Source: Candidatus Pacearchaeota archaeon
Lineage (GTDB): Archaea; Nanobdellota; Nanobdellia; Pacearchaeales; GW2011-AR1
Length of the DNA stretch: 64,000 nucleotides
Assembly (NCBI GenBank): GCA_040879765.1
Contig: JBBDJQ010000002.1
Location: 5-64,004 of the forward strand
Direction: 5' to 3'
Shown: one piece after another, positions 4,255 to 20,726 of the stretch
Numbering within the stretch: the first letter of the stretch is position 1
How the letters are laid out: each line of letters starts with the position of its first letter
Position numbers and translations under genes: made by a program
Notes under the pieces: model-generated
What the model saw: only the letters and a program-made list of their open reading frames with translations
The model's database searches: none
What the model was told of the DNA's origin: nothing

Positions 4255-4345
4255 TAGAAATCAACCTTATAGATAGAAATAATTAAAAATTAGGGTTTAA
4301 TAAATTTGCTGCAAGATTTAAAAGACTAAAAAACAATTAGATTTT

Positions 4346-4825
4346 ATGGAAAATAAAAGTGTAGGATATATTGTCCTTGGGATTGCTGTTTTGCTTATAA
4401 TAATAGTGGCACTTTTCAATTCTACCCTGAAGGAAATTGTTGAAGTCGGATGTGAAGTTGGACATGGAATTTCCTGCCCCATGTATGATTCCATAAACAA
4501 ACAAACCTACCTCTCTCTTGGAATTGTGGGATTCTTAATAATTCTTGGAATAGTATTAATCTTTACAAAGCCAAAGGAAAAAATAATTGTCAGAAAGGTT
4601 AAAGAAAAAAAGAAGAAGCTGGATGTTGGGAAACTTGATAAAAAAGAAAAGCAAATTATTGAAATTCTTGGAGATGAAAATGGAGCAATGTTTCAATCAG
4701 AACTCAAGGAAAAATTGGATGTTGGGAAGGTTGGTCTTACAAGACTTTTAGATAAACTAGAAGCAAAGCAATTGATAGAGAGAAAAAGAAGGGGAATGAA
4801 CAATATTGTTGTTTTGAAAAGTTAG
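4346..4825 (+). CDS. membrane-anchored winged-helix (MarR/TrmB-like) DNA-binding protein
   Basis: Two predicted TM helices followed by a wHTH region (SELKEKLDVGKVGLTRLLDKLEAKQLIERKRRG). Confidence 0.45.
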   Translation: MENKSVGYIVLGIAVLLIIIVALFNSTLKEIVEVGCEVGHGISCPMYDSINKQTYLSLGIVGFLIILGIVLIFTKPKEKIIVRKVKEKKKKLDVGKLDKKEKQIIEILGDENGAMFQSELKEKLDVGKVGLTRLLDKLEAKQLIERKRRGMNNIVVLKS

Positions 4826-4858
4826 AAAATTTTAAAAGTTAATAATCTATTTAGAGAT

Positions 4859-5506
4859 ATGCCATTCAAACTTTCTCCGTCTTCCTTGAATCTTATGAAA
4901 GAATGTCCTCGTTGTTTCTGGCTAACGCAGCATAAGGTGTGGAAAAGACCGACAGGGATTTTTCCAAGTCTTCCAAGTGGAATGGACAAAATTCTCAAAG
5001 AACATTTTAATAAATTTATGGATATTGGAGAGTTGCCTCCTGAATTGTACGACAATTCACATTGTGAAAATATGAAACTTTTTGACAACCATGAGATTCT
5101 TGCCATATGGCGAAGTAATTTTAAGGGAATCCAATGGGAAGATGGTAAAGGAAACATTCTCAGGGGTGCAGTTGATAATATATTAATGAAAGGAAAAAAA
5201 CTTATTGTGTTAGATTACAAGACAAGAGGCTATGCTTTAAAAGAAGATACTGCAGAACACTATCAAAATCAATTAGACATTTATAATTTCCTTCTAAGGA
5301 AAGCTGGCTATGAAACTGAAGATTACGCTTTCCTTTTATTCTATGTTCCTAGAGAAGTCACCAAAACCGGAGAGGTCATTTTTGATACGGAATTAGTAAA
5401 GATGAAGATTGATGTCAAAAATGCTGAAACAATATTTGAAAATGCAATAAGATTATTAAATTCTGATTGTCCTCAAAATAAATGTGAGTGGTGTGATGGA
5501 AGGTAA
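4859..5506 (+). CDS. Cas4-like / RecB-family PD-(D/E)xK nuclease with Fe-S cysteine cluster (DUF83-like), no CRISPR context
   Basis: N-terminal CPRC and C-terminal CPQNKCEWC cysteines. Core motifs VD...LDYK and QLDIYNFL (QhxxY). Confidence 0.6.
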   Translation: MPFKLSPSSLNLMKECPRCFWLTQHKVWKRPTGIFPSLPSGMDKILKEHFNKFMDIGELPPELYDNSHCENMKLFDNHEILAIWRSNFKGIQWEDGKGNILRGAVDNILMKGKKLIVLDYKTRGYALKEDTAEHYQNQLDIYNFLLRKAGYETEDYAFLLFYVPREVTKTGEVIFDTELVKMKIDVKNAETIFENAIRLLNSDCPQNKCEWCDGR

Positions 5507-5537
5507 AGAAAAATGCGATATCGGAATAATTAAAAAA

Positions 5538-6749
5538 TCACTGGATCTCAACACCCAATTTCTTAGAGCTTTCTTTTATCTCTTTTATTATTTTGTCTTT
5601 ATTTAGATTAAGCTCTTCTAATTTTTTCTCGGTTCTATCTTTCATATTTTTCAAATTTTCTATTTCGGATTTTAATTTCTCCCTCTTTGAATAAAGTTCA
5701 TTTGGTTTTTTTAGGAGAATTTCTTTTTTAATTTCATTTTCAAGATTAGAAATCTCCTCTTTTTTTGAATTAATGTTGCTTATTTTAATTGAAATAATAT
5801 TTTTATCATCAAGTTTTGCTTCTTTTATTAATTCAAAAATTGCCTTTCCATCATCCTTATGGAATGCCAACTCAAAATTGTTTTTGTATTCATTAACTAT
5901 ATGCATTTTTTCCTTAAATATATGATGAAAATTTCCTAAAACTTTAAAATCAACTTCCTTTCTTAAATCAAATACATCTTTGGATAATTTTTCTTTAAGG
6001 TTTTTCATATTTTCAGCCTTTTTTCGTAATTCAATGTATTTTTGGCTTTTCTTTATTCTTTCTTCTTCCTCAGAAACCTCTTTATCTTCATTTTGTCTAA
6101 TGCTTATTTCTTCATCAATAGATTTTACATCTTTCTTTATTTTTTTAATTTCTCTTTCCTTATTCTCAAGGAGATTAAGTTTTGACTTCATGGTATGGAG
6201 TCTTCTAAATCCATCAATAATATTCTTGTTTCTATCAAAAATTCCAATAATCCTACCATAAAAGTTTTTCAAAAGATTTCTTAAACTCGCCATTTCTTTC
6301 CCTATGAGAATTGTTGCCCTTTCATAGCTTTTGTATGATTTTTTATTAAATTCAGAAAAAATTGAGCTTATTTCATTAGCCACTTTTTCAAGGTTTTTGT
6401 TTTTAATACTTTTAAGACTTTCAATAAGATTTTCCAGCGATTCGATGTATTTTTTTCTCCCTTCCTCTGAAGCCCATTTAAACCTATCTTCAGCTTTTTT
6501 AGAATTAACATCAAACTCTTCAACAATTTTTATTTTTTCTTTGATATCCCCAGAGAACTCTTCTATTTCTTTTTTTATTTCTAAAAAAATCTCTCTTTCT
6601 TTTTCCTCATCTCCACTTATCTTAGATTCCACCCACTTTTCAAGGCCAAATAATGAAACCTTTTCTTTTTCAGGAATTATTTCGTTTTCAACTTTTATTT
6701 TACTAAATCTCTTTAAGAAATTAAATATTCTCATATCCAAATCAAACAT
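5538..6749 (-). CDS. K/E-rich coiled-coil protein (403 aa), function unknown
   Basis: Highly charged heptad-like composition throughout. No enzymatic motifs. Confidence 0.5.
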   Translation of the reverse strand: MFDLDMRIFNFLKRFSKIKVENEIIPEKEKVSLFGLEKWVESKISGDEEKEREIFLEIKKEIEEFSGDIKEKIKIVEEFDVNSKKAEDRFKWASEEGRKKYIESLENLIESLKSIKNKNLEKVANEISSIFSEFNKKSYKSYERATILIGKEMASLRNLLKNFYGRIIGIFDRNKNIIDGFRRLHTMKSKLNLLENKEREIKKIKKDVKSIDEEISIRQNEDKEVSEEEERIKKSQKYIELRKKAENMKNLKEKLSKDVFDLRKEVDFKVLGNFHHIFKEKMHIVNEYKNNFELAFHKDDGKAIFELIKEAKLDDKNIISIKISNINSKKEEISNLENEIKKEILLKKPNELYSKREKLKSEIENLKNMKDRTEKKLEELNLNKDKIIKEIKESSKKLGVEIQ

Positions 6750-7090
6750 GAATTGATTAAAAGTGTTTTGATTTTTTTTAAAACAAGAAGGATTTAAAAT
6801 TGGTGGTTCTTAGGGGTTTTAAGGCAAACTTTCAAGAAAAAGTAACCTTCATGCGGGGTTTAGTGGCCTTGATACTTGGTAGCATTCCATGGGTTGCAGC
6901 GATAGTTTATCTACTTGTTGATTTATCAGGGATCTGGTTTTTAGTAAAGCTTTTTAGATGAAAGTTCTTTAATTATTTTTATTTTTATATTTTTCTTTAA
7001 ATAATTTGTTTGATTACATTTGTGGCTAAACTAACCTCATGTAACTAGTTTCACCAAAGTGATTAAATAAAAACTTTTTCTGTAAGAATC

Positions 7091-7726
7091 ATGAAAAGCA
7101 AAAAGTATGATGCTGAATTTTTAGCTCAGATAGGAGTTATAATTATTCTGATGATTTTGCTGGTTTATACATTAGGCCCTTCAAAAAATTTCGGAGGAAT
7201 AGGAGTTGTATCTGCTTCATCAATTGTTCCCATAGGAACTCCTGAGATTTACGGAGAGGAATTGGGAATAAAATACGACCATGTTTCTCCAGACAACCAA
7301 AAACTTGCCAATCAGGCAATAAATCTTTTGGGAAATATTGATCGTGTTGAAAAGTTGGAAGGAGAAGAACTCGAGAGATACATTGATATCCTTTACAATA
7401 TGCATGGAGGGATATCTTGTGAGTATTGTTGCGGAGCACGTTCTGTAATTTTTTCCAATGGAGATCCTGCTTGCGGATGCGCTCATAGTTATGCAATGAG
7501 AGGCTTGACAAAATACCTTATATTGAATCATCCGGAAATTTCTGATGAAGAAATTATGACAGAAATAGGGAAGTGGAAGGTTTTATTTTTCCCGGGCATA
7601 ATTGAAGGCAAGGCCCAGGTCATGGAAACTCTCGGAATTGAAACAGATTACATAAGTCTCACAACAAATAAATACAGAGGTATAGAGAAGGGGCAAACAC
7701 AAGGAGAGATGATAGGTTCATGCTAA
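7091..7726 (+). CDS. N-terminally membrane-anchored Cys-rich protein (CEYCCG...CGCAHS)
   Basis: One N-terminal TM helix. Clustered Cys and His residues suggest metal binding. First gene of the metal island. Confidence 0.4.
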   Translation: MKSKKYDAEFLAQIGVIIILMILLVYTLGPSKNFGGIGVVSASSIVPIGTPEIYGEELGIKYDHVSPDNQKLANQAINLLGNIDRVEKLEGEELERYIDILYNMHGGISCEYCCGARSVIFSNGDPACGCAHSYAMRGLTKYLILNHPEISDEEIMTEIGKWKVLFFPGIIEGKAQVMETLGIETDYISLTTNKYRGIEKGQTQGEMIGSC

Positions 7727-7912
7727 TATTTTAAGATGAAAAAAATAAAATTAGAAAGGAGAAAACTTTTGTTATGGATTTTTATAGGGATTCTTTTGCT
7801 TGCATTGGTTTATGCAGTCTTCCTCAAAGATACAGCAATTGTAAGCAGCGTTGGACCAGGATCAACACAAGCAGCTTCGGCATATAGTGGAATGGTCGGA
7901 GGCTGTTAAAAA

Positions 7913-8362
7913 ATGAAAAAAATTTATTTATTAATTTTTTCAGCAATGATAGTCCTTGCTGTTTTTTTTATTTTTAACGCAGAAAAAGTTGAAGGTACTG
8001 AAGCAGTATATTACAAATCAATTTCCTGCGGATGTTGTGATGCCCATTCAAAATATTTAAACTCTAAAGGATTTAGTGTAAAAGTAAATAATCTTCAGAG
8101 CATAGATTCAATCAAATCTGACTTTGGAGTCCCATATGAACTACGAAGTTGTCATACAGTAATTATTGATGATTATTTTGTTGAAGGACACATCCCTCTT
8201 GAAGCAATAAATAAACTTCTTGAAGAAAAACCCAATATTAGAGGAATTGCAATGCCTGGGATGCCATCAGGAAGCCCGGGGATGCCCGGAGCTAAAACAG
8301 GGTTCTTTAAAATATATTCTGTAAATCATGACGGAAGTTATGGGGAGTTTATGGAAATTTAA
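7913..8362 (+). CDS. DUF411 / CopG-like periplasmic metal-binding protein
   Basis: Signal/TM N-terminus, CGCCDAH motif and MPGMPSGSPGMPG motif, as seen in copper-resistance DUF411 proteins. Confidence 0.6.
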   Translation: MKKIYLLIFSAMIVLAVFFIFNAEKVEGTEAVYYKSISCGCCDAHSKYLNSKGFSVKVNNLQSIDSIKSDFGVPYELRSCHTVIIDDYFVEGHIPLEAINKLLEEKPNIRGIAMPGMPSGSPGMPGAKTGFFKIYSVNHDGSYGEFMEI

Positions 8363-8876
8363 GATGAATTCAAAATTTCTTTTTTTATTATTCCTGCCAA
8401 TTTTATCTATAGATCTTGTCTCAGCACATTGTCCCTTGTGCACCCTAGGTGCTGGAGCTGCGGCTGCTGGAGCAACCTGGGCAGGAATTAGCAAAGTTGT
8501 AGTAGGATTATTTGTGGGAGCCTTTGCCATATCTCTTGGAATGTGGTTTGCAAAGGCAATCAAGAAAAAATACATCCCTTTTCAAAAAACATTTATAGTC
8601 TTAATAATTTTCATTACTACTGTGTTTCCACTGCTTCCTATTTTTAGTGCTATCGGGCCTTTATATATTTCTTTCATAGGAGAATATGGAAAAACATATG
8701 CAATTGATTATTCTTTATTCAGCAGCATTCTCGGAGGGATTATTACATTTTCTTCACCCTACATAAGCAAAAACATCTCCAAAAGAAGGATGGGAAAAAT
8801 AATTCCTTTTCAGGGAGTGATAATCACCCTTGCCTCATTAATAATAATTGGAGGAGCTATTCAGGCATTCATATAA
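8328..8876 (+). CDS. polytopic membrane protein with HCPLC motif
   Basis: Signal-like N-terminus (start is probably the internal Met near 8364). HCPLCTLGAGAAAAG followed by four or more TM helices. Confidence 0.4.
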   Translation: MTEVMGSLWKFKMNSKFLFLLFLPILSIDLVSAHCPLCTLGAGAAAAGATWAGISKVVVGLFVGAFAISLGMWFAKAIKKKYIPFQKTFIVLIIFITTVFPLLPIFSAIGPLYISFIGEYGKTYAIDYSLFSSILGGIITFSSPYISKNISKRRMGKIIPFQGVIITLASLIIIGGAIQAFI

Positions 8877-9301
8877 TGGAAATGATAATGTGGTCATTGA
8901 TAGGGATAACAGCATTGTTTTTTGTTTTATTGGCAATTAAATCATTTTTAAAATCCGAAAAATTTTGTGTAATTTGTTCTTCAGTTACGTTAACATGGAT
9001 TATGCTGCTAATATTGCATTTCATGGGGGTTTTTACAAATAAAATAATTATTGCGATTTTGATGGGGATGACTGCTTTAGGAATTTATTATGCATGGGAA
9101 AAGAAAACTAAAAATAAAAACCTGATTTTTAGATTGCCTTTGTTGTTAACGCTCATTTTTATCATATATTCTATTCTCAGCAAATTAGTTTTAGAAGGTT
9201 TGTATTTTATTATTATTTTATGGGGGTTTTTTATTTTAATTTATTTCTTTGAATTTAATAAATTTGCAAGAAAGCTTGTGGAGTGCTGCAAAAAATGGTA
9301 G
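8876..9301 (+). CDS. membrane protein with CxxC (CVICSS) adjacent to a TM helix
   Basis: 4-5 TM helices. Translationally coupled to both neighbours. Confidence 0.4.
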   Translation: MEMIMWSLIGITALFFVLLAIKSFLKSEKFCVICSSVTLTWIMLLILHFMGVFTNKIIIAILMGMTALGIYYAWEKKTKNKNLIFRLPLLLTLIFIIYSILSKLVLEGLYFIIILWGFFILIYFFEFNKFARKLVECCKKW

Positions 9302-9726
9302 ATAAAAAATCAATTTTATACGGCATCCTTGCAGGTCTTGGCTTATTCAGTTTATACATTTTAATTGTTTCCTTCTTTCAGGGATTTCAATTTGCAATTT
9401 TAAATTTCAAAAGTTTATGGTTTTGGATTATACCCTTGGTGGCTGGCTTCGGAACCCAAATAGGACTTTACACATCAATAAAACATACTGCAGAAATGAC
9501 AGGAACCGTGGCTGTTTCAGGAACAATCTCTGGAGGATCAATGCTTGCCTGTTGTAGTCATTTTCTTTTAAACATAATTCCAGTAGTTGGTTTTTCTGGA
9601 ATTGCAATTTTTTTAGTGAAATATCAAACAGTCTTTTTTGGCATAGGAATAATTTCCAACATAATTGGAATAGGTTTTTTATTTAATCATAAAAGAAAAA
9701 TGAAAGGGGGTTGTCATAGTGAATAG
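9283..9726 (+). CDS. membrane protein with an intramembrane vicinal Cys pair (ACCSHF), MerT/MerF-like pattern
   Basis: 4 TM helices. CC followed by a Pro within a TM helix, reminiscent of heavy-metal transporters. Confidence 0.35.
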   Translation: MLQKMVDKKSILYGILAGLGLFSLYILIVSFFQGFQFAILNFKSLWFWIIPLVAGFGTQIGLYTSIKHTAEMTGTVAVSGTISGGSMLACCSHFLLNIIPVVGFSGIAIFLVKYQTVFFGIGIISNIIGIGFLFNHKRKMKGGCHSE

Positions 9727-9949
9727 TAAAATAATACTGTGGATTTTAGTGGCATTAGCAGTGTTAACTCTTATGGTTTTTATATTTTTTCCGTATGCGG
9801 GGCATGCAATAAAAGATTTTGGAGCAAATCAATATTCAAATAGTGATGGGGACATATGTTCTCCTCCTGAAGGGACTAGTAAAGAAGACTGGGAAGATCA
9901 TATGAGTCATCACCCAAATATCTATAGAAGTTGTTTGGAGAGAATATAA
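9719..9949 (+). CDS. small membrane-anchored His/Cys-rich protein
   Basis: One TM helix. C-terminal HMSHHP and CLE cysteine. Confidence 0.35.
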   Translation: MNSKIILWILVALAVLTLMVFIFFPYAGHAIKDFGANQYSNSDGDICSPPEGTSKEDWEDHMSHHPNIYRSCLERI

Positions 9950-9973
9950 AAAGAAGAGACCATTCAATAAAAA

Positions 9974-10459
9974 ATGAAAACACAAATTTTATTTTTAATG
10001 GGATTGATTTTTCTTTCAGTTTTTGTAATTGCACATTCTGAAGACACTTTCACGGAAGCCGAAAAGATAATAATGCAAAAAATTCCTTGTGAAAATTTAA
10101 CAAATGAACAACTAGAAATTGTTGGAGATTATTATATGGAACAAATGCATCCTGGAGAGCTTCACGAAGCAATGGATGAAATGATGGGTGGCGAGGGGAG
10201 TGAATCTCTTAAAGAGAATCACATAAATATTGCCCTGTCTTTTTATTGTGGAAAACATCAGGAATTTTCATCTGGAATGATGAACATAATGATGGGAAGG
10301 GACAGCTATTATGGATATGGAATGATGGAGGGTTATTATTATAGGGCAAATCCCCTATTATTTTTATTTAATGCTATTCTAATAATAATCCTTATTTTAT
10401 TTATAATTTGGATTTTAAAGAAAATTTTAGAAAATAAAAAACGTGGGAAAAGAAAATGA
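9974..10459 (+). CDS. secreted Met/His-rich putative copper-binding protein with C-terminal TM anchor
   Basis: Signal peptide. MxxxM/H-rich tracts (MEQMHPGELHEAMDEMMGG, SGMMNIMMG, YGYGMMEGYYY). Confidence 0.5.
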   Translation: MKTQILFLMGLIFLSVFVIAHSEDTFTEAEKIIMQKIPCENLTNEQLEIVGDYYMEQMHPGELHEAMDEMMGGEGSESLKENHINIALSFYCGKHQEFSSGMMNIMMGRDSYYGYGMMEGYYYRANPLLFLFNAILIIILILFIIWILKKILENKKRGKRK

Positions 10460-10875
10460 GTTATGGAATTAGCAAAAAAACAGATTTGGAGTTTAACATT
10501 GCTGTTAAAAAAGTAAAGTATGAACTCAAGAAAGAAGGATTTGGAGTTTTGACCGAGATTGATGTTAAAAAAACCTTAAAGGAAAAATTAGATGTTGACT
10601 ATGACAACTATGTTATTCTTGGATCATGCAATCCTCCTTTTGCATACAAGGCTCTTCTTGCAGAGAAGGAAATTGGTTTGCTTCTGCCCTGTAATGTTAT
10701 TATATATTCTTCAAACGGAAAGACTTTTGTTTCAGCGATAAATCCCGAAGAAGCCATGGCCATGATTAATAATCAAAAGTTAAGAGAAATATCCAAAGAA
10801 GTTGGAAAAAGGCTAAAAAAAGTAATTAATAGCATAAATAAAAATAAGGGAGGTGCAAATGGCTCAAAAGCTTGA
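10456..10875 (+). CDS. DUF302 domain protein
   Basis: Sequence pattern typical of DUF302 (PF03625), a family often found in metal-stress loci. Confidence 0.5.
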   Translation: MSYGISKKTDLEFNIAVKKVKYELKKEGFGVLTEIDVKKTLKEKLDVDYDNYVILGSCNPPFAYKALLAEKEIGLLLPCNVIIYSSNGKTFVSAINPEEAMAMINNQKLREISKEVGKRLKKVINSINKNKGGANGSKA

Positions 10876-11104
10876 CGAAAAGGCTCTTGCATACAGTCTT
10901 GCCACAATCTCAGCGGCAGGGATGCTTATTCTAGGGATATTTGGGTACGCAGGAATTTATTCCGGTGCTGTTGGTATGATGATGCAATGGCACATGTATT
11001 TCAGAATAAGCCCATTGTGGATTTTATTAGGAATGGTGGAGGCAGCAATATGGGGATTCATTGCAGGATATGCAACTGCATGGGTTTACAATAAATTTAC
11101 ATAA
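10853..11104 (+). CDS. small two-TM membrane protein
   Basis: 83-aa hydrophobic protein. Overlaps the end of the DUF302 gene. Confidence 0.35.
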   Translation: MQMAQKLDEKALAYSLATISAAGMLILGIFGYAGIYSGAVGMMMQWHMYFRISPLWILLGMVEAAIWGFIAGYATAWVYNKFT

Positions 11105-11150
11105 AATTTAAATGAAAACATTTAAATATTAATATGTTATATATTATCAT

Positions 11151-11513
11151 ATGATAAATAAGAGCATATTAAAAAAAGGCAGAAATAAAGGATTTAATGA
11201 CGAGGAGATTTATGAAGCCTACAAGATATTTTTTGGGACCCTTGTTTCTGAACAAAGATTAAAAATCATAAATTTCCTCAGAAAAGGCAAAAAAAGTGTT
11301 TCAGAGATAATGAAGGAACTAAGAATGAATCAAACATCAGTGTCTCACAATTTATCCAGATTAAAAAAATGTGGGTTCGTAAAATCAGAGATTAAAGGGA
11401 AATACCGTTATTATGAATTGGATAAAAAAACTATTCTGCCTTTAATGAATCTAATTAACAAACACATGCTGTCTAATTGTATCCACATATTAAACAATAA
11501 GAAAAAAGCATGA
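11151..11513 (+). CDS. ArsR/SmtB-family metalloregulatory transcriptional repressor
   Basis: HTH segment SVSEIMKELRMNQTSVSHNLSRLKKCGFV. Translationally coupled to copA. Confidence 0.7.
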   Translation: MINKSILKKGRNKGFNDEEIYEAYKIFFGTLVSEQRLKIINFLRKGKKSVSEIMKELRMNQTSVSHNLSRLKKCGFVKSEIKGKYRYYELDKKTILPLMNLINKHMLSNCIHILNNKKKA

Positions 11514-13711
11514 GGGAAATAAAGATAGATATAGATGGCATGAATTGTGCATCTTGTGCAACAAATATAGAAAAAAGTTTCAGAAAAATTAAAGGAGTGA
11601 AAAAAGCATCGGTCAACCTTATGGCTAAAAAAGGGTTCATTGAAACTGAAAAAGAGATGAGTGATAAGGAAATAGAAGAAGCCGTCTCAAGAGCTGGGGA
11701 TTACAGAGTTTTAAAATTAAATAATAAAGATCTTAATAAGGATGGGAAAAATAACCCACCTAGGCATGAAAACCATGATCATTCTAGAAAGGTTGAAGAA
11801 AAGGAAATAAATTTATGGAAAAAGAAAATGCTTTGGGCATGGATTATTACGATCCCCATAGCCTTCATCATGTTTTCTGAAAGATTATTCGGCATAAAAT
11901 TATTTGATGAGATTACCATGACGATTGTGCTTCTAATTTTATCATTCCCGGTTATATTTATAATAGGTTTTTCAACTCTCAGAGGGGGATTAAGAGGATT
12001 TATTAATTTGTATTTCAACATGGATTCTCTCATCGCTCTTGGAACAATTATAGCCTATGCCACAGGGATAATGAGTTTATTCATGAATATTCTAGATTAC
12101 TCTGGAATTGCTTCAATGATCATGGCTTTTTTCATAACAGGAAAATATGTTGAAACAAAGGCAAGAGGAAAGGCAAGTCAAGAAATTAAAAAATTGCTTG
12201 AACTCGGAGCTAAGAAAGCAAGAATTTTAAGAAAAAATAAAGAAATTGAAATTCCAATTTCAGAAGTTGTAGAAGGGGATGTTATGATAATAAAACCAGG
12301 TGAAAAAGTTCCCACAGATGGTATAATTATAAAAGGTGAAAGCAGCGTGGATGAAAGCATGGTTACTGGAGAAAGCATTCCTTCAGACAAATTAAAAGGG
12401 GACAATATTATTGGTTCTACCATAAATCAGGATGGGATTTTATATGTGAAGGCTACAAAAGTTGGGAAGGATACTTTTTTGTCACACATAATAAAACTTG
12501 TCGAAAATGCTCAAGGAACAAAAATTCCCATACAAAGATTTGCCGATAAAGTAACTAGTATTTTTGTGCCAGTCATACTGGCAATAACTGTTTTAACATT
12601 CTTTGCATGGATGTTCATCTTAGATGCGAGTCTAAGTCGAGCCGTAGGAGTTTCAGTTTCAGTATTGGTTATAGCCTGCCCCTGCGCATTAGGTTTAGCA
12701 ACTCCAACCGCCCTCATGGTTGGAAGCGGAATGGGAGCCAAAAAGGGAATTTTAATTAGAAGAGGCGAAGCAATACAAACTATGAAAGAAATAAAAATAA
12801 TTATATTTGATAAAACTGGCACTATCACAAAAGGTCATCCAGAAGTAAAAAAAATTTATTCAAAAATAAAAGAAAGCTATCTTCTTGAAATAGCTGCTAG
12901 CATAGAAAAACTCAGCGAGCATCCGTTATCAAAAGCAATTGTTGAAAAAGCCAATCTAAAAAAATACAAGCCTGTTAAAAATTTTAAAATCATAAGAGGA
13001 AAAGGTGTTGAAGGAAAAATAGGAAACAAATTAATTCTTATAGGGAATAGCTTATTGATGAAAGAAAGGGGAGTTTTGCTTAAAGAAATTAGGAGTAAGA
13101 TAAAAAGTTTTGAGGAAAAGGGCTACACTTCGATGATTGTATCTGAAAACAAAAAACCTCTGGGAGTGATTGGCGTTGCTGATGCAGTAAAAGAAGATTC
13201 AATTTCTTCTATAAAAGAGTTGAAAAATCAAGGCTATAGGATTGTCATGATTACGGGAGATAATGAAAGAACCGCAAAGGCAATTGCTAAACAAGTTGGC
13301 ATAAAAGAGGTAATAGCTAATGTTCTTCCTGATGACAAGGCAAAAATAGTAAAAAAAATGAAATCTAAAGGTATGACAGCATTTGTAGGAGATGGAATAA
13401 ATGATGCTCCTGCACTGAAGGAAAGCAATGTCGGGATAGCCCTCGGAACAGGAACTGATATCGCAATAGAGTCTGGAGACATAGTTCTTTCAAAAGGCTC
13501 ATTAAAGGGGGTTGTTCAGGCAATAAACCTAAGCAAGGCAACTTTTGGAAAAATAAAACAAAATTTATTCTGGGCCTTTGCATATAACACTCTTGCAATT
13601 CCTCTGGCCATCGCAGGTTTCTTACATCCGGTAATAGCTGAAATTGCAATGGCCTTAAGCTCTATAACTGTTGTTGGTAATGCAAATCTATTAAGAAGAA
13701 AAAAGATATAA
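11510..13711 (+). CDS. copA: copper(I)-translocating P1B-type ATPase
   Basis: N-terminal HMA domain (GMNCASCA), CPC transmembrane motif, DKTGTIT, GDGINDAP. Confidence 0.9.
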   Translation: MREIKIDIDGMNCASCATNIEKSFRKIKGVKKASVNLMAKKGFIETEKEMSDKEIEEAVSRAGDYRVLKLNNKDLNKDGKNNPPRHENHDHSRKVEEKEINLWKKKMLWAWIITIPIAFIMFSERLFGIKLFDEITMTIVLLILSFPVIFIIGFSTLRGGLRGFINLYFNMDSLIALGTIIAYATGIMSLFMNILDYSGIASMIMAFFITGKYVETKARGKASQEIKKLLELGAKKARILRKNKEIEIPISEVVEGDVMIIKPGEKVPTDGIIIKGESSVDESMVTGESIPSDKLKGDNIIGSTINQDGILYVKATKVGKDTFLSHIIKLVENAQGTKIPIQRFADKVTSIFVPVILAITVLTFFAWMFILDASLSRAVGVSVSVLVIACPCALGLATPTALMVGSGMGAKKGILIRRGEAIQTMKEIKIIIFDKTGTITKGHPEVKKIYSKIKESYLLEIAASIEKLSEHPLSKAIVEKANLKKYKPVKNFKIIRGKGVEGKIGNKLILIGNSLLMKERGVLLKEIRSKIKSFEEKGYTSMIVSENKKPLGVIGVADAVKEDSISSIKELKNQGYRIVMITGDNERTAKAIAKQVGIKEVIANVLPDDKAKIVKKMKSKGMTAFVGDGINDAPALKESNVGIALGTGTDIAIESGDIVLSKGSLKGVVQAINLSKATFGKIKQNLFWAFAYNTLAIPLAIAGFLHPVIAEIAMALSSITVVGNANLLRRKKI

Positions 13712-13768
13712 TTGATAAGGTTTTTGCAATTCAATATCTTTAAAAAACTCTTTTGTTTTATTTTGTTT

Positions 13769-14569
13769 ATGTATGTAATAAAGGCTTCAGGAAAAAAAGA
13801 GGAATTTAATTCAGATAAGATTTTTAGAACTTTAGAAAAGGCGGGGGCATCAAAGGAACTTGCCATGGAGATTGTTTCAAAAGTTCAAAAGAAAGTTCAT
13901 GATGGAACCACAACTAAAGAAATTTTAAATTCTGCACTGAGGTTATTGAGAAATAGAAATCCTGTAGTTTGTGAAAGATATGATTTGAAAAGAGCAATAA
14001 TGTCTCTTGGCCCAACAGGATTTCCATTCGAGAAATTTTTTTCAAGAATTTTAGAAAATTATGGTTATAAAACAGAAGTTGGACAAATTGTAAAAGGAAG
14101 AATAACCAGGCATGAGATTGATATAATCGCAGAAAAAAATTCTAAGAGATACATGGTTGAGTTGAAATATCACAATTCTCTAGGGATTTATACAAGATTG
14201 AAAACCGTGCTCTATGTTTATGCCAGATTTTTAGATTTAAAGGGAAAATTTGATCAGCCTTGGATTGCAACAAATACAAAATTATCTCATCAAGCAAGGA
14301 GATATGCTGATGGAATGCATATGAAAATAACAAGCTGGGAATACCCTGAAGGGAAATCTCTTTCGGAAATGATAGATTACAAAAAGCTTTATCCTGTTAC
14401 GATTCTAAAATCAGTTAATAAAAAAATAATTCACCAACTTTGTAAAGCGGATATGATGCTTTCTAAAGATTTATTGGATATTGATGAGAAAGAATTAATG
14501 AAAAGAACCAACCTCTCTCTAGAAATGGTCCAGAGAATTTTAAAAGAGGCTAGACAAGTTTGTGGTTAG
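13769..14569 (+). CDS. ATP-cone domain fused to a PD-(D/E)xK (Mrr-like restriction endonuclease) domain, with C-terminal HhH-like tail
   Basis: MYVIKASGKKEEFNSDKIF... matches the ATP-cone N-terminus. Nuclease core is RHEIDIIAEKNSKRYMVELKYH. The ORF track begins at 13712; I prefer the Met at 13769. Confidence 0.55.
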   Translation: MYVIKASGKKEEFNSDKIFRTLEKAGASKELAMEIVSKVQKKVHDGTTTKEILNSALRLLRNRNPVVCERYDLKRAIMSLGPTGFPFEKFFSRILENYGYKTEVGQIVKGRITRHEIDIIAEKNSKRYMVELKYHNSLGIYTRLKTVLYVYARFLDLKGKFDQPWIATNTKLSHQARRYADGMHMKITSWEYPEGKSLSEMIDYKKLYPVTILKSVNKKIIHQLCKADMMLSKDLLDIDEKELMKRTNLSLEMVQRILKEARQVCG

Positions 14570-14648: not shown

Positions 14649-14695
14649 GTACAATTTATTGTAATGTATAACTTATATGATACAATATATAGTAT
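14649..14695. promoter_or_regulatory. two tandem NrdR-box-like 16-bp palindromes (centres about 31 bp apart) overlapping a TATA-like element upstream of nrdR
   Basis: GTACAATTTATTGTAA and ATACAATATATAGTAT, compared with the NrdR box consensus acaCwAtATaTwGtgt. TTATATGA lies at about -30 from the ATG. Confidence 0.5.
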
Positions 14696-14707: not shown

Positions 14708-15151
14708 ATGGATTGTCCATATTGCGCTAACAACACATCAAAAGTAACAAATAAGAGAGAAGCCCCTCAAGGAATAAGGAGAAGGAGGGAGTGTTTGAAA
14801 TGCAGCAAGAGATTTACAACATATGAAAAAGTAGATAGTGGAAAATTGTATGTTATAAAGAAGGATGATTCAAGACAGAAGTTTATTAGAGAAAAACTTG
14901 AAGCAGGGATTGAGAGGGCTTTCGAGAAAAGACCAACAAAAAAAGAAGATATAGAAAAAATGATAAGGGAAATTGAGGAACAAATAAGGAGAAAGGGAAA
15001 AAGAGAGATAAAAACTTCAACAATTGGAGAATTAGTTGCAAGAAAAATAAAGAAATTAGATAACGTTGCCTACATAAGGTTTGCTTCTGTTTACAGAGAT
15101 TTTCAAGACGTTAAAGATTTTTCTGAAGAATTAAGGGGGTTGGAAAAATAA
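14708..15151 (+). CDS. nrdR: NrdR transcriptional repressor (Zn ribbon + ATP cone)
   Basis: CPYC...CLKC zinc ribbon followed by an ATP cone. 147 aa. Confidence 0.85.
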   Translation: MDCPYCANNTSKVTNKREAPQGIRRRRECLKCSKRFTTYEKVDSGKLYVIKKDDSRQKFIREKLEAGIERAFEKRPTKKEDIEKMIREIEEQIRRKGKREIKTSTIGELVARKIKKLDNVAYIRFASVYRDFQDVKDFSEELRGLEK

Positions 15152-15152
15152 A

Positions 15153-17810
15153 ATGAATGATGTTGCACTTAAAGAGATAATTATAGCAGAAAGAATTCAA
15201 GCACAAAAAGGAAATCTCCCTGATTACGTTGAAGCTAGAGAATTTGAAGAAAGAGTTGGTGGAAATAGGAAATATGCTTTTGAAAAAAAATACTCTCACA
15301 GAAATGAATCTGGAGAGATTGTTGAAAGTCCTTCGGAAGCCATATATAGGATGGCGCTCACAATGGCAGAAGTTGAAGAAAGCTATGGTGCAACGCCTGA
15401 ACAAGTTGAACAGCATGCTGAAGATTTTTTTAATATAATTTCAAAAGAAAGGTTTTCTCCAGGAGGAAGAATATGGACTAATGCGGGGACAAAGATTAAA
15501 GGTTTGTTTAATTGTTATGTTCTTCCAGTTCATGATAGCATGGACAAAGATGAAGAAGGGAGTATTTATGATTCTGTTGCAAATGCTGCAATGATTCACA
15601 AGAATGGAGGAGGAACTGGATATAATTTTTCAGAGCTAAGACCAAGAGGTACTTTTGTTCAGAGCTCAAAAGGAATCGCTTCTGGACCAGTATCTTTCAT
15701 TGGACAATTTGATAAAGAAACTGAAATTATAAATTCTGGTAATCGTAGAGGTGCAAATATGGGGATTCTTGATGTTACTCATCCAGATATTTTAGATTTT
15801 ATTTATGCTAAATCTAAAAGGGGGGAAATGACTAATTTCAATGTTTCAATAGGTGCTTTTGATAGATTTATGGGAGCCGCAAGAGATAAAGAATTTTATG
15901 GGCTTGAATTTCCTGAAGGAAAGCCATTACATTATACTTCTCTTGAACAAATGGTCAGAAATATAGAAGAAAATAAACTTGGAGCATCGGGAGTTGGAGA
16001 GGAACCAAGACCAGCATCATTAAGACTTGGATCAAAAGAAATAATTCCAGGAAAAACAGAAGTTGTAGATTCATTTTCTGGTGAAGTTGCAGGAAGAGTT
16101 AATAAAGAAGGGAATGTTGAACTTTATGCCCCTTATGTTTTAGATAGGGTTGCTAAATTGGCACATGAAACTGCAGATCCGGGGATGATATTTCTAGATA
16201 AAATAAACAAGACAAATCCATTACCAAAACTTGGACCCATAAAAGCTACAAATCCTTGTGGAGAACAGCCTCTTCATCCATATGATGCATGCAACTTAGG
16301 GAGTACATTGCTTTCAAATTTTGTTATTGAGAATGAAAATGGAGAGAATGAAATTGACTATGATGGTTTAGAAGATACTGTAAGGATAGCTACAAGATTC
16401 ATGGATAATGTAAATGATGCAAATAAAGGTCCGATTCAAAAAGTTGAAGAAACGGTTAAAAGTCATAGAAGAATTGGAATGGGAGTTATGGGTTTAGCAG
16501 ACATGTTGATTGAAATGGGTGTTCAATATGATTCAGAAGAAGGACGAGATTTAGCAAGAGAAGTTATGGGCTTTCAAACAAATATTGCAAAAGAAACTTC
16601 GGTTAATTTAGCCAAAGAAAAAGGCGTCTTTCCCGCTTTTGAAGGAAGTGCTTACGATACTGGGAAAGAGGAAGACAGAGTCAGAAACATTGATAGAACA
16701 ACTATTGCACCAACTGGAACAATCTCTATGCTATATGATGTTTCTTCGGGAGTAGAACCAATCTTTTCGGTCTTGTGGACAAAACATATTAGGGGAGGAG
16801 ATGCCCTACAATATGTTCATCCTGTTTTTGAAAAAGAATGCAAAAAAAGAGGAATAGATATAGATAAGGTTATTCCATTAATAGAAGAAAATCAGGGGGG
16901 TGTTCAAGGAATAGAAATTATACCTGAAGATATGCAAAGACTTTTCAAAACTGCTCTTGATATTAAATATGAAGACCACATACTTATGCAGGCGGCCATC
17001 CAAGAAAAGGTTGATAATGCAGTTAGCAAAACTATAAACATGCCAAACTCAGCAACTATTGAGGATGTTAAAAGTGCATACATTATGGCTTGGGAAAATG
17101 ATTTGAAGGGGATAACTGTTTACAGAGATGGTTCAAAATCTGTTCAAGTTCTAACAACAGGACATGGAAATAAAAAAGAAGAAGTAATAGATGAAAATAT
17201 CCCTTCTGTAAACAATCCCATGAAAATTCCGAGCTTCATGCCTGCTTTTAAGATTAAACAAAATACTCCTTTTGGAAATATGCATTTAAAATTCATAATA
17301 GATCCTAAAAGAGATTATGCGCCCGTTGAAGTTTTTGGTAGTTTAGGAAATGCCGGAGAAGATGAAGCTGCAAACATGGAAGGACTTGGAAGATTAACTT
17401 CTCTCTGGTTAAGGAGTGGGGGCGGTTTAGAAGGAATTATTAGTCAATTAGAAGGAATTGGTTCTGGAAGGATGACGGTTACAAGAGATGGAGGAATACA
17501 ATCTTTAGAAATGGGTTTTGCAAGAGGTTTGCAAAAATTTGAAGCCATGAGAAAAAATTATAATATGGAAGCAATACTTACTGGAAAACTTGATTATAGC
17601 GAAGTTGAAGGGCAAGTTTCAGATTCATTAAGAACTAGAAATAAAATTGTTAATGGTAAGGATGATGTGGATAGTGAAGAATCTGAAGAAAAAACAAATG
17701 TCAAAAAAAGTGAAAGATGCCCAGACCCAGATGAAATTGGTTGTAAAGGAACATTAATTCAAGAAGAGGGTTGTTCAAAATGTCGTTCTTGCGGATATTC
17801 TAGATGTTAA
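15153..17810 (+). CDS. nrdJ: class II (adenosylcobalamin-dependent) ribonucleotide reductase
   Basis: NPCGEQPL active-site motif, 885 aa, C-terminal Cys tail (CPDPDEIGC...CSKCRSC). No N-terminal ATP cone. Confidence 0.7.
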   Translation: MNDVALKEIIIAERIQAQKGNLPDYVEAREFEERVGGNRKYAFEKKYSHRNESGEIVESPSEAIYRMALTMAEVEESYGATPEQVEQHAEDFFNIISKERFSPGGRIWTNAGTKIKGLFNCYVLPVHDSMDKDEEGSIYDSVANAAMIHKNGGGTGYNFSELRPRGTFVQSSKGIASGPVSFIGQFDKETEIINSGNRRGANMGILDVTHPDILDFIYAKSKRGEMTNFNVSIGAFDRFMGAARDKEFYGLEFPEGKPLHYTSLEQMVRNIEENKLGASGVGEEPRPASLRLGSKEIIPGKTEVVDSFSGEVAGRVNKEGNVELYAPYVLDRVAKLAHETADPGMIFLDKINKTNPLPKLGPIKATNPCGEQPLHPYDACNLGSTLLSNFVIENENGENEIDYDGLEDTVRIATRFMDNVNDANKGPIQKVEETVKSHRRIGMGVMGLADMLIEMGVQYDSEEGRDLAREVMGFQTNIAKETSVNLAKEKGVFPAFEGSAYDTGKEEDRVRNIDRTTIAPTGTISMLYDVSSGVEPIFSVLWTKHIRGGDALQYVHPVFEKECKKRGIDIDKVIPLIEENQGGVQGIEIIPEDMQRLFKTALDIKYEDHILMQAAIQEKVDNAVSKTINMPNSATIEDVKSAYIMAWENDLKGITVYRDGSKSVQVLTTGHGNKKEEVIDENIPSVNNPMKIPSFMPAFKIKQNTPFGNMHLKFIIDPKRDYAPVEVFGSLGNAGEDEAANMEGLGRLTSLWLRSGGGLEGIISQLEGIGSGRMTVTRDGGIQSLEMGFARGLQKFEAMRKNYNMEAILTGKLDYSEVEGQVSDSLRTRNKIVNGKDDVDSEESEEKTNVKKSERCPDPDEIGCKGTLIQEEGCSKCRSCGYSRC

Positions 17811-17860: not shown

Positions 17861-18394
17861 ATGGTGATTTTATCAGATAATGAAATAAAGAGATATATTG
17901 AAAAAGGAAAAATTGGGATTAGCCCATATGAAGAATCAAATGTTCAAGGAGCTTCTGTAGATTTTAGATTAGGGAGGGGTTTTTTGGTTCCTCCAAACTA
18001 TTATGGAGATTTTGCTAAAGAAGAAGGTATTGTCATTTCTTTGGATAGCAAGGTTAAATATGAGGAAGTTGATGATAGTGAAATCATTTTACCTCCCGGG
18101 CATTTTATTTTAGGGACTACTCTTGAAAAATTAACAATTCCGGATTTCCTTTGTGGAGAAGTTGGAGGAAAAAGTGGTGTTGCTAGAAAAGCCCTAAATA
18201 TAGAAAATGCGGGGCATTTAGGTCCTGGATTTGAAGGTCAAATTACTTTAGAATTATACAATGGATTGGCCTTTCCAATAAAACTAAAGGAAGGAGATGG
18301 GATTTGTCAAGTCCAATTCCATGAGTTATCTTCTGCAGCAACGAAAATTTATAGGGGTAAATTTCAAAATCAAGAAGGTCCAAAGGCTAATTGA
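17861..18394 (+). CDS. dcd: dCTP deaminase (dUTPase fold)
   Basis: Classic N-terminus ILSDNEIKRYI...GASVDFRLG. Confidence 0.8.
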   Translation: MVILSDNEIKRYIEKGKIGISPYEESNVQGASVDFRLGRGFLVPPNYYGDFAKEEGIVISLDSKVKYEEVDDSEIILPPGHFILGTTLEKLTIPDFLCGEVGGKSGVARKALNIENAGHLGPGFEGQITLELYNGLAFPIKLKEGDGICQVQFHELSSAATKIYRGKFQNQEGPKAN

Positions 18395-18443: not shown

Positions 18444-19064
18444 ATGTTACTTTCTGCTGTAAGAATTCTAGAGTTAAATAAAAAGCATAATCTTTTGGAA
18501 AATCTTTGTAAAAGAGAATCTGAAAATCCGGAGGGGGTTGGGATTGATTTAAGAGGGGGCAAGGTTTACAAAATAGAAGGAGATAGTTTTCTTGGTGCAG
18601 ATGAACATCCAATAACAAAAGAAAAGCTAGAGGGGTTAAGGCATTCTCCAAAAGTTAGTCTTGTTGCTAATTATGAGGATAATAAAGAAAGAGTAAGTAA
18701 ATTCACAATAAAACCAGGAGAATATTACCTCATTGAAACTATTGAAAAAGTTCATTCTCCAGCAGAAAAAGTAAAATATGATGATTTTTTCCCCGAGGGG
18801 TATTTGGTTCCAGTTATTTCTCCAAGAGTCTCACTTCAAAAAGGGGCTGTAGCACTTTATCATGCAAGGACCAATCCTGGCTATTCTGGACCTTTAATTT
18901 TTGGGCTAGCTAATAATGGAAAAGAAGATTTTACATTTGAACTTGGAGCAAGAATGTTTAGAATAGATTTTGAAGGAGTTATAGGGGACATTGATAGAAT
19001 TTATTCCGGACAGCATCAAGGAGGGAGAGTAACAAGTCAGGGAGAAAAAGAAAAACAAAATTAA
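18444..19064 (+). CDS. second, divergent dCTP deaminase/dUTPase-family paralog (possibly an archaeal-type dUTPase)
   Basis: GVGIDLRGG and other dUTPase-fold motifs. 206 aa. Confidence 0.5.
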   Translation: MLLSAVRILELNKKHNLLENLCKRESENPEGVGIDLRGGKVYKIEGDSFLGADEHPITKEKLEGLRHSPKVSLVANYEDNKERVSKFTIKPGEYYLIETIEKVHSPAEKVKYDDFFPEGYLVPVISPRVSLQKGAVALYHARTNPGYSGPLIFGLANNGKEDFTFELGARMFRIDFEGVIGDIDRIYSGQHQGGRVTSQGEKEKQN

Positions 19065-19065
19065 A

Positions 19066-20223
19066 ATGACAAGACAATATCTAGACCATTCAAGAGAAAT
19101 TCTTACTTCCCCTCTTTCAGAATACAAACACAATCAAAGAACTGGTATGGGGCATATTTCTTTATTTGGATATCAAAACCGACATGATTTAAGGGAAGGT
19201 TTTCCTCTTTTAACAACAAAGAAAACAAACTTTGATTTTATAGCTCATGAATTGGTTTTGTTTTTGCACGGAGACACAAATATAAAATATTTAGTTGATA
19301 ATGGGGTCCCTATTTGGAATGATAACGCTTTTGATTATAATTTGAGAGAAATGGTCGATGAAAGTATTTTTCCTGAATCTACTTTGGAGAAAAGATCAAG
19401 AGATTGGTATTCAGCAAAAGAAGAATATGTTCAGAGAATAAAAGAGGATGAAGAATTTGCTGAAAGATGGGGAGAACTTGGTCCAGTTTATGGTTCTCAA
19501 TGGGTCCATTGGCCTTTCTTTAAACAAACTGGTAAAAAAGATAGTGAAGGTCAAGAACTTTATGTTAGAGATCCAGAAGGAATAAATCAGATTGATAGAA
19601 CTATAGAAAAACTCGTTAAGAACCCAACAGCGAAAAGTAATCTTGTTTCTGCCTGGAATCCTCAAGAAGTTCCAAACATGGCTTTACCTCCATGTCACAC
19701 AATGTTTCAAGTTAATTCAAATGGAGAAGATTTAGATTTACAGCTTTACCAAAGAAGTTGTGATATGTTCTTAGGAGTTCCCTTTAACATTGCAAGTTAT
19801 GCCCTTATGACTCAAATAATAGCCGACCAAGCTGGATTAAATCCTAGGCATTTTGTCCACACTTTTGGGGATGTTCATTTTTATTGTGCAGATGGAGAAA
19901 GAGCAAAGTGGTATAGGGACAATTTAGATAAATTAAAGTTTGAAATTAAAGATGCTCCTTGGAGATGGGGAGGGAGTATTAAAGATGTTGTTGATTGGAT
20001 AAATAAAGAAGCCCCTTTAGAAGTTGAAAAAGATGGAACTGAAAGAAAAGGGAAAGACAGACAAGACCATGTTACTGCAATCCTAACCCAAATGCAAAGA
20101 GAACCGAGGGAATTACCTAGAGTGAAAATATCAAACAAACCTTATCGTGAGCTTGAAAGAAATGATTTTGAATTAATTGGTTATGATCCTCATAAAGGGA
20201 TTCTAAGATCTATGGCTGTTTAA
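19066..20223 (+). CDS. thyA: thymidylate synthase ThyA, with large insertions (385 aa)
   Basis: DRTGTG-like, SAWNPQEV, PPCH catalytic Cys region, QLYQRSCD. About 120 extra residues relative to bacterial ThyA. Confidence 0.85.
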   Translation: MTRQYLDHSREILTSPLSEYKHNQRTGMGHISLFGYQNRHDLREGFPLLTTKKTNFDFIAHELVLFLHGDTNIKYLVDNGVPIWNDNAFDYNLREMVDESIFPESTLEKRSRDWYSAKEEYVQRIKEDEEFAERWGELGPVYGSQWVHWPFFKQTGKKDSEGQELYVRDPEGINQIDRTIEKLVKNPTAKSNLVSAWNPQEVPNMALPPCHTMFQVNSNGEDLDLQLYQRSCDMFLGVPFNIASYALMTQIIADQAGLNPRHFVHTFGDVHFYCADGERAKWYRDNLDKLKFEIKDAPWRWGGSIKDVVDWINKEAPLEVEKDGTERKGKDRQDHVTAILTQMQREPRELPRVKISNKPYRELERNDFELIGYDPHKGILRSMAV

Positions 20224-20726
20224 TTTCTTTGATTTATTTCATAAAATCCACTTGAAGGATTTACTCTTGGAGTAATTCCTCTTGATAAATCATTTAACGG
20301 GATTTCGACAGATTTACTTGGGAAAGTAGGTTCTGCTAAAGTTACTAAATCTCTTTGAGAATTATAATCTAAAAAAAGAGCAATATGCAATCTTGGATTT
20401 TCTATTTGGATGGATTCTGGAAGAACTCTTGAATCATAGCCAATTATAACTTCGCCCCTAACTTGTTTTAAAAAATAGTCTAAATTTTGATAAACTTCAA
20501 AATCCCTGAAAGGGGTTTTGAAATCCACCCTTAAAGCAAAATCACTCAGGAAAGTTGCAAAAAGAGAATCATTAAATATCAATCCGTCTCTTTTTGTTGA
20601 TTTTGGAAAAGATTGAAAAATTTTCTGTTGACTAATTTCATGTCCTTGATTTCTCAATAACCCCTGTAATGTTGAAGGAACACACCAGTCCTTTTCTTCT
20701 GGCAATGAAACATCGTAGCACCTCAT
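20220..20726 (-). CDS. putative papain-like (C39-like) cysteine peptidase domain protein
   Basis: Candidate Cys (DWCVPSTLQGLL), His (RLHIALFLDY) and Asp (DLVTLAEP) in the order expected for C39-like peptidases. Weak call. Confidence 0.3.
   Translation of the reverse strand: MRCYDVSLPEEKDWCVPSTLQGLLRNQGHEISQQKIFQSFPKSTKRDGLIFNDSLFATFLSDFALRVDFKTPFRDFEVYQNLDYFLKQVRGEVIIGYDSRVLPESIQIENPRLHIALFLDYNSQRDLVTLAEPTFPSKSVEIPLNDLSRGITPRVNPSSGFYEINQRN

Follow-up and report, generated by a model that had tools for sequence, protein, structure and literature searches.

The analysed DNA, hereafter the window, is a stretch of 64,000 nt from contig JBBDJQ010000002.1 of a Candidatus Pacearchaeota archaeon (GCA_040879765.1), and all positions not assigned to another locus are numbered within it. 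It contains a gene encoding a protein of 266 residues (hereafter, the cone-nuclease) in which an N-terminal ATP-cone is followed by a Mrr-type PD-(D/E)xK nuclease domain and a C-terminal tandem helix-hairpin-helix ((HhH)2)-like domain (Table 1). The gene lies directly 5' of nrdR and nrdJ, the latter encoding a class II ribonucleotide reductase (RNR). Both this position and the three-part architecture had been proposed in an initial annotation made from the sequence alone, and they hold up in profile searches: Pfam recognises the ATP-cone (PF03477, residues 1-69, 38.7 bits against a gathering cut-off of 25.8), Mrr_cat (PF04471, residues 84-190, 27.4 bits against 21) and AF1548-like_C (PF22357, residues 208-264, 53.6 bits against 23.9). 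The protein is 100% identical to an NCBI entry (P0001) named 'ATP cone domain-containing protein [Candidatus Pacearchaeota archaeon]'. None of the NCBIfam models is devoted to this architecture. The ATG at 13769 was taken as the start codon, in agreement with the N-termini of the homologues (M-Y-V-I-K...), which align end to end; an alternative TTG start at 13712 would add a hydrophobic extension seen in no homologue. Neither a signal peptide nor a membrane anchor was detected in the sequence.

The structure model of the cone-nuclease forms one confident body (predicted local distance difference test score, 95; predicted template modelling score, 0.90). In this model the N-terminal domain has the ATP-cone fold, a short beta-sheet lid above a four-helix cone, and the nuclease domain has the alpha-beta-alpha core of restriction endonucleases. 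The structurally closest relatives of the nuclease domain include the ligand-gated nucleases Can2, Card1, Cdn1 and NucC. The single strong sequence match in the PDB is 1Y88 (AF1548), with an E value of 1.4e-42 across residues 90-266 and a similarity at the level of orthologs; no full-length structure of a cone-nuclease was found there. This similarity along the nuclease and HhH parts, together with the C-terminal AF1548-like domain, places the protein in the AF1548-like family. The (HhH)2 domain is of the type that binds duplex DNA, which suggests that the protein engages duplex DNA rather than degrading nucleic acid in bulk.

Residue conservation was counted over 141 diverse members of the family, each representing a separate cluster at 50% identity. 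E88, E116, D118, K133 and D156 are kept in all of them, and E131 (140/141), R153 (140/141) and N169 (139/141) are near-invariant, which argues for a working active site. The window protein contains RHEIDIIAEKNSKRYMVELKYH, in which D118 and E131-x-K133 are found, with E88 as a fourth acidic residue, and the cone-nuclease family carries a complete Hjc-like catalytic tetrad (E...D...E-x-K). The intact D...E-x-K that the initial annotation had read in this protein is thus also preserved in its homologues. At least five members have an insertion of 40-60 residues within the nuclease domain, after approximately residue 160, in which no extra Pfam domain was recognised.

The putative nucleotide-binding face of the cone is similarly maintained. 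The motif reads V3-I-K5-A-S-G8-K-K-E11-E-F13-N-S-D-K17-I in the window protein, with T49, Y71 and K74 further along, and K5, G8, E11, F13, K17, T49, Y71 and K74 are conserved among the 141 members. The linker that leads into the nuclease domain is also conserved (G81, G84, F87 and E88 at 100%, P82 at 96%). Six cone residues (V3, K5, E11, F13, K17 and I18), all of them conserved among the 141 members, correspond to V51, K53, E59, F61, K65 and L66 of Escherichia coli NrdR, which cover and sandwich the adenine, and the NrdR tyrosine equivalent to Y71 touches the nucleotide phosphates and is involved in discriminating ATP from dATP (bioRxiv 10.1101/2025.03.28.645925). At K5-A6-S7-G8 the window cone lacks the basic residue that follows the lid Lys in the canonical K-R-D-G, a residue that is typical of cones and not strictly defining. 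Among the 141 members, the Arg position of this motif is occupied by Ala in 72 members, Ser in 22 and Arg in 8. The Archaeoglobus ortholog (P0290) retains the canonical VRKRDGRLEEF, and its cone scores 50.1 bits against PF03477.

AF1548 of Archaeoglobus fulgidus is the only family member with a solved structure, and it has the same nuclease and HhH parts as the cone-nuclease (PF04471 and PF22357); D118, E131 and K133 of the window protein are equivalent to its D38, E51 and K53. The deposited chain of 1Y88, however, begins at the linker and lacks the ATP-cone that the cone-nuclease has. An Archaeoglobus open reading frame (ORF) of 265 residues that is 99% identical to AF1548 (P0290; loci L068 and L069, 6001-6798) does carry the cone, as does every other ortholog in Archaeoglobi. 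There is an overlap of 35 nt between this ORF and the MscS gene upstream of it, a possible reason for the original choice of a downstream start. Most likely, the start codon of AF1548 was placed too far downstream and the crystal structure is truncated as a result. AF1548 was predicted to be a nuclease from D38, E51 and K53 and was grouped with Mrr_cat, and the passages on 1Y88 in the two papers concerned do not mention an ATP-cone (PMC1821046; PMC1874628). The term ATP-cone is also absent from a survey of the PD-(D/E)XK superfamily (PMC3424549). The record of this 2004 structural-genomics entry can be corrected accordingly, as a regulatory domain was missed.

The family is large and mostly archaeal. 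A homologue search returned 1280 matches, the best non-identical one with an E value of 1.2e-110, far past chance. An exhaustive HMMER search over 1.84 billion cluster representatives gave 1092 matches, 417 of them at E<=1e-30, and the family thus comprises 417 clusters or more when sequences are grouped at 50% identity. Nearly all of the best 150 listed members are 260-290 residues long and match end to end, indicating that the three-domain architecture is the rule. Members were found in DPANN archaea (Woese-, Pace- and Nanoarchaeota, Diapherotrites and Aenigmarchaeota), in Altiarchaeota, Hadarchaeota, Hydrothermarchaeota and MSBL1, in Archaeoglobi (including the cultured Geoglobus and Ferroglobus), and in Bathyarchaeia, Korarchaeota and other Thermoproteota. 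The few bacterial members belong mainly to the Candidate Phyla Radiation (CPR), i.e., Uhrbacteria, Peribacteria and Patescibacteria. A single full-length locus was found per genome, with a partial second match (L067) in one metagenome-assembled genome (MAG) of Altiarchaeales. Identity between members from Pacearchaeota and Hadesarchaea reaches 57%, and the protein tree broadly tracks taxonomy. Two sequences from MAGs labelled as bacterial are nested within Nanoarchaeota, which points to transfer or mis-binning. Database names of members include 'ATP cone domain-containing protein' and 'restriction endonuclease'. In agreement with the initial annotation, the literature yielded no functional characterisation of the family.

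Table 1 Features of the cone-nuclease gene and its nrdR-nrdJ flank (window positions).
Feature	Position	Strand	Remarks
TTTAAAAA, possible archaeal TATA box	13739..13746	+	~26 nt 5' of the ATG; read from the sequence
Cone-nuclease coding sequence	13769..14569	+	801 nt including stop, 266 residues; ORF list and sequence
ATP-cone domain, residues 1-79	13769..14005	+	beta-hairpin lid (residues 2-4 and 10-12) and helical bundle
Linker L80-G-P-x-G-x-P-F-E88	14006..14032	+	joins last cone helix to first nuclease helix; terminal residue is the catalytic Glu
Mrr-type PD-(D/E)xK nuclease domain, residues 86-195	14024..14353	+	
Codon GAG for E88, first catalytic acidic residue	14030..14032	+	read from the sequence
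Core catalytic motif H115-E116-I-D118 ... E131-L-K133	14111..14167	+	read from the sequence
Catalytic codons	D118 14120-14122; E131 14159-14161; K133 14165-14167	+	
C-terminal (HhH)2-like domain, residues 198-265	14360..14563	+	presumed sequence-non-specific DNA binding
Two 16-bp NrdR-box palindromes, GTACAATTTATTGTAA and ATACAATATATAGTAT	14649-14664; 14680-14695	.	15 bp apart
nrdR	14708-15151	+	TIGR00244, 176.6 bits
nrdJ, class II RNR without ATP-cone	15153-17810	+	Pfam, NCBIfam

The region downstream of nrdJ, up to position 21334, contains dcd, a dcd-like gene and thyA in this order, then an ORF without annotation on the opposite strand (20220-20726), and lastly folA. The tandem dCTP-deaminase-like genes between nrdJ and thyA (17861-18394 and 18444-19064) differ in their fit to the Pfam DCD model, the second being much more divergent (E value of 9.5e-12 against 2.1e-35 for the first). 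The initial annotation drew attention to the missing ATP-cone of the neighbouring NrdJ; the absence is real, but it means less than it seemed to, as 93% of class II RNRs have no ATP-cone (PMC4390871) and a cone-less NrdJ is the norm.

To compare genomic contexts, all ORFs neighbouring the gene were clustered for 63 species-level loci and the window (64 loci in total). NrdR and NrdJ were each neighbours in 13 of the 64, all from DPANN of the Nanoarchaeota type. The link to nrdR, which had served the initial annotation as a clue to function, is therefore real but limited to this group, and is not a property of the family. The 13 loci fall in three to four Nanoarchaeota subclades of the protein tree despite rearranged flanks. 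In 12 of them the cone-nuclease gene lies 5' of nrdR on the same strand, within 3.4 kb in 11 cases. Unrelated or opposite-strand genes often intervene, and the upstream flanks differ. By our own estimate, approximately one locus in 64 would be expected by chance for a genome of ~1 Mb, the loci being phylogenetically non-independent. The link is suggestive of a functional connection, yet it is compatible with inherited synteny.

The pair of NrdR boxes occupies the 139-bp spacer between the stop codon of the cone-nuclease gene and the start codon of nrdR, and flanks a TATA-like TTATAT. Equivalent pairs are located directly 5' of nrdR in two relatives (L008, 8892-8939; L033, 3804-3851). [quoted passage not shown] The arrangement around TTATAT suggests that nrdR-nrdJ may be autoregulated through blocking of the archaeal promoter. 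Control of the cone-nuclease gene itself by NrdR was considered and rejected, as a search of the 64 loci gave convincing box pairs only 5' of nrdR, in the window and the same two relatives. A single operon with nrdR was rejected on account of the operator and a T-rich stretch in the spacer and of the opposite-strand genes in many relatives. With the operator between them, the cone-nuclease gene stands outside the NrdR-controlled unit and the two are separate transcription units. The promoter element listed 5' of the ATG in Table 1, if it is a TATA box, could give the cone-nuclease gene its own, nearly leaderless transcript, its distance to the start being judged by general rules for archaeal promoters. 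One further palindromic match to the core pattern of NrdR boxes, CTATATATTG at 405-414, has no partner box and is probably a chance match (five pattern matches in the window against 2.3 expected). A search for RNA elements, riboswitches and repeats around the cone-nuclease gene gave only two sub-threshold matches to microRNA models, one of them over the NrdR palindromes.

Outside the nrdR-linked loci, gene contexts are diverse. The other frequent neighbours in the 64 loci were a heavy-metal P-type ATPase (n = 11), a small membrane protein (n = 9) and ArsR (n = 7), a copper-related cluster with HMA-domain and cupredoxin-like members was present in eight loci, and approximately 40 loci had no common neighbour. 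Of the neighbours that lie close to the gene and run in its direction (n = 52), any one family accounts for at most six. The P-type ATPase gene, of the Cu type, found in the window (11151-13711) and in ten further loci from Nanoarchaeota, Hadarchaeota and one bacterial MAG, lies no more than a few kb away and invariably shares the strand of the cone-nuclease gene; HMA, cupredoxin-like, ArsR and thioredoxin-like genes are often found with it. The idea that the gene is generally linked to membrane transporters was rejected, with multi-transmembrane proteins making up 14% of genes at position -1 and 13% at +1 against 11% overall, i.e., no enrichment. The small predicted membrane protein (75-116 residues) is encoded on the opposite strand in nine Nanoarchaeota loci, within ~250 nt of the cone-nuclease gene in six and farther away in three (for example, L006, 7498-7728; L007, 7734-7961; L009, 6264-6509; L027, 1821-2096; L036, 8823-9089; L050, 8179-8463), and has no counterpart in the window.

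A block of Metallophos, HEAT and Lhr-type helicase genes lies on the reverse strand of the window (480-4254). The same block, with a Fic gene between HEAT and Lhr, is found just 5' of the homologue in a Pacearchaeota relative (L001 and L008, 2831-7426). In the window, ~9.5 kb (4346-13711) with MarR-like, DUF302, ArsR, P-type ATPase and small membrane-protein genes separates the block from the cone-nuclease gene, suggesting insertion or rearrangement of a metal-resistance block at this site. In three Archaeoglobi, the cone-nuclease gene is preceded by a gene for MscS, CorA or an amino-acid permease that overlaps its start; the Geoglobus acetivorans locus has no amino-acid permease. Its context was uninformative, as were those of the Korarchaeota and Aenigmarchaeota loci. 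In two Bathyarchaeia loci (L072 and L073), the homologue (5001-5873) shares 11 nt with the 3' end of a gene (3467-5011) encoding Glycos_trans_3N, Glycos_transf_3 and PYNP_C domains, of the nucleoside/AMP/thymidine phosphorylase type, which is itself preceded by a gene of the IF-2B family. The family is thereby connected to nucleotide metabolism a second time, and independently.

The cone-nuclease unites two kinds of protein that are known separately, ATP-cone regulators and gated PD-(D/E)xK nucleases, and this pairing is new relative to characterised systems. NrdR, a repressor of RNR genes, joins an N-terminal four-Cys Zn-ribbon to a C-terminal cone, whereas the cone of the cone-nuclease is N-terminal and the protein matches neither Zn_ribbon_NrdR nor TIGR00244, both of which are matched by the product of the neighbouring nrdR. 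The effector of the cone-nuclease is a nuclease that is catalytically intact as judged from its residues, and a separate NrdR is encoded next door. Can2, Card1, Cdn1 and NucC, from type III CRISPR and the cyclic-oligonucleotide-based antiphage signalling system (CBASS), are ligand-gated PD-(D/E)xK nucleases and provide the working analogy. Their sensor is a CARF or SAVED domain and their ligand a dedicated second messenger, in contrast to the ATP-cone and presumed ATP/dATP of the cone-nuclease, which lacks a CARF domain, is not set among CRISPR or CBASS genes, gives no match in PADLOC and is not a member of the Can2/Card1 families. Hjc (PF01870) is a small (~120-140 residues) stand-alone dimeric nuclease, from which the cone-nuclease differs in profile and in size. 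Structure-specific nucleases of the XPF, Mus81 and Hef type have the same domain order, with a DNA-binding (HhH)2 domain placed C-terminal to a nuclease of the restriction fold.

Given these observations, the best reading is that the cone-nuclease may be a housekeeping DNA endonuclease that is allosterically gated by ATP/dATP, which develops the nucleotide-gated nuclease already suggested in the initial annotation and which we consider plausible, with a probability of roughly 0.45. For nucleotide binding, for allosteric gating and the direction it takes, and for the substrate and the role in the cell, we infer the following. The protein would be a cytoplasmic, metal-dependent PD-(D/E)xK endonuclease that holds DNA via its C-terminal (HhH)2 domain, and the presence of ATP or dATP at the N-terminal cone would set its activity. 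Binding of ATP or dATP reshapes quaternary structure in RNR and in NrdR, switching the activity of the former and the DNA binding of the latter (bioRxiv 10.1101/2025.03.28.645925; PMC12051234). By analogy, nucleotide binding to the cone-nuclease would most likely shift its oligomeric state, and this change would decide whether two catalytic domains assemble productively on DNA. A second route, acting alone or in combination, could use the invariant LGPxGxPFE linker to pass the signal from the last cone helix (Y71 and K74) to the helix of E88. If gating has the same direction as in NrdR, which we favour with low confidence, the dATP-containing state, when deoxynucleoside triphosphates (dNTPs) are replete, would be the one that engages DNA. 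Such dATP licensing would confine incision to periods in which dNTPs are available for resynthesis. The cone-nuclease looks like a vertically inherited single-copy enzyme through which DNA repair or replication-linked processing would be tied to the supply of dNTPs, and in DPANN of the Nanoarchaeota type its gene has remained beside a dNTP-supply island (nrdR-nrdJ-dcd-thyA-folA) while being transcribed separately.

The recurrent links to nucleotide metabolism, i.e., nrdR-nrdJ in DPANN and the phosphorylase-type gene in Bathyarchaeia, count in favour of this gated housekeeping endonuclease. Several points weigh against it. The Ala or Ser in place of the K-R-D-G arginine may alter the affinity or specificity for nucleotides, or the ligand may be other than ATP/dATP. 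None of the neighbouring genes is kept throughout the family, and contextual support for any particular cellular role is therefore weak; the adjacency to nrdR could reflect inherited synteny in one phylum. The direction of gating is a guess by analogy. A non-specific DNase in the cytoplasm would be a danger to the cell; branched DNA or RNA are alternative candidates for the substrate. No functional, experimental or comparative study of the family was found in the literature, and the fusion may have been mentioned earlier in an in silico study.

A sensor paired with a Mrr-like nuclease is reminiscent of the nucleases activated by cyclic oligonucleotides, which rank among the closest structural matches, and the initial annotation had raised defence as one option. 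The cone would in that case sense an ATP/dATP pool disturbed by a virus and unleash a non-specific nuclease for abortive infection, as CARF and SAVED do with Can2, Card1 and Cap4. Neighbourhoods that differ between lineages are in keeping with this, as are the HicA toxin and transposase genes a few kb upstream in Ferroglobus. However, none of the 5027 models of PADLOC-DB v2 matched at E<=1, and the ~75 examined loci contained no defence, methyltransferase or CRISPR genes, their annotated neighbours being housekeeping genes. The family had no copy in 2.9 million viral contigs of IMG/VR. In PHROGs, only the cone (to RNRs), a short nuclease stretch (to an unannotated family) and, weakly, Hjc were matched, without the full architecture, which was also not found among the predicted viral structures of BFVD. 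The single locus per genome, the strong conservation across phyla and the taxonomy-like tree are likewise atypical of defence genes, and with no defence, viral or methyltransferase signal, a housekeeping role fits better than defence, which we regard as unlikely. An ordinary type II or type IV Mrr-like restriction endonuclease with a passive or vestigial cone is another reading. Database names, the Mrr_cat match and the earlier predictions for AF1548 (PMC1821046; PMC1874628) all lean that way. No methyltransferase family was found among the 25 most frequent of the 54 families matched by the 52 likely operon neighbours, nor in the Pfam-annotated loci, and the cone and its ligand-contact residues are retained in essentially every member. 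Type IV Mrr enzymes carry an N-terminal winged-helix reader of modified DNA before Mrr_cat. Mrr and the MspJI/AspBHI-type enzymes thus have a modified-DNA reader (Mrr_N or SRA-like), whereas the cone-nuclease has a cone in its place and an extra (HhH)2, shows a vertical-like distribution and is not located in restriction or defence contexts. Of the explanations weighed here, we give this one the least credence.

Two other possibilities were weighed. DPANN archaea often have no de novo nucleotide synthesis, and low pools of dNTPs or adenylates could act through the cone to release a nuclease that degrades DNA or RNA for salvage, chiefly in DPANN. The dNTP-supply island that adjoins the gene in Nanoarchaeota and the phosphorylase-type gene that it overlaps in Bathyarchaeia, beside the IF-2B-family gene, would both be consistent with salvage. 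Yet the family is also present in the free-living, metabolically complete Archaeoglobus, Geoglobus and Ferroglobus, the protein has no export signal or anchor for acting on external DNA, and its (HhH)2 domain points to the handling of duplex DNA rather than bulk degradation; we find salvage improbable, slightly more so than defence. Alternatively, the nuclease fold and HhH domain might merely bind DNA under ATP/dATP control, forming a non-catalytic transcription factor of the NrdR kind, as the initial annotation also suggested. NrdR follows the same logic of a cone joined to a DNA-binding domain, and in some DPANN nrdR and the RNR gene adjoin that of the cone-nuclease. PD-(D/E)xK proteins that have become inactive DNA binders normally lose the very residues that are invariant here (E88, D118 and K133) or kept in all members but one (E131). 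In addition, no recognisable operator is found 5' of the cone-nuclease gene, NrdR boxes occurring only before nrdR in the 64 loci searched, and one canonical NrdR, with boxes that are canonical too, is already encoded in this organism. A purely regulatory role is disfavoured on these grounds and appears quite improbable, more so than salvage.

To our knowledge, ATP-cones work in two settings only, the control of overall RNR activity and DNA binding by NrdR. It is possible, and we put it forward tentatively, that the cone-nuclease is the first known case of an enzyme under ATP-cone control that is neither a ribonucleotide reductase nor the repressor of one. With its endonuclease activity on DNA licensed by the ratio of dATP to ATP, it would provide a dNTP-pool checkpoint on DNA processing in many archaeal phyla and some CPR bacteria, missed owing to the truncated 1Y88. 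If this is true, dATP/ATP sensing would extend from making DNA precursors to cutting DNA, and archaea, most of which have no NrdR and have cone-less RNRs, would gain a direct link between the nucleotide pool and genome maintenance.

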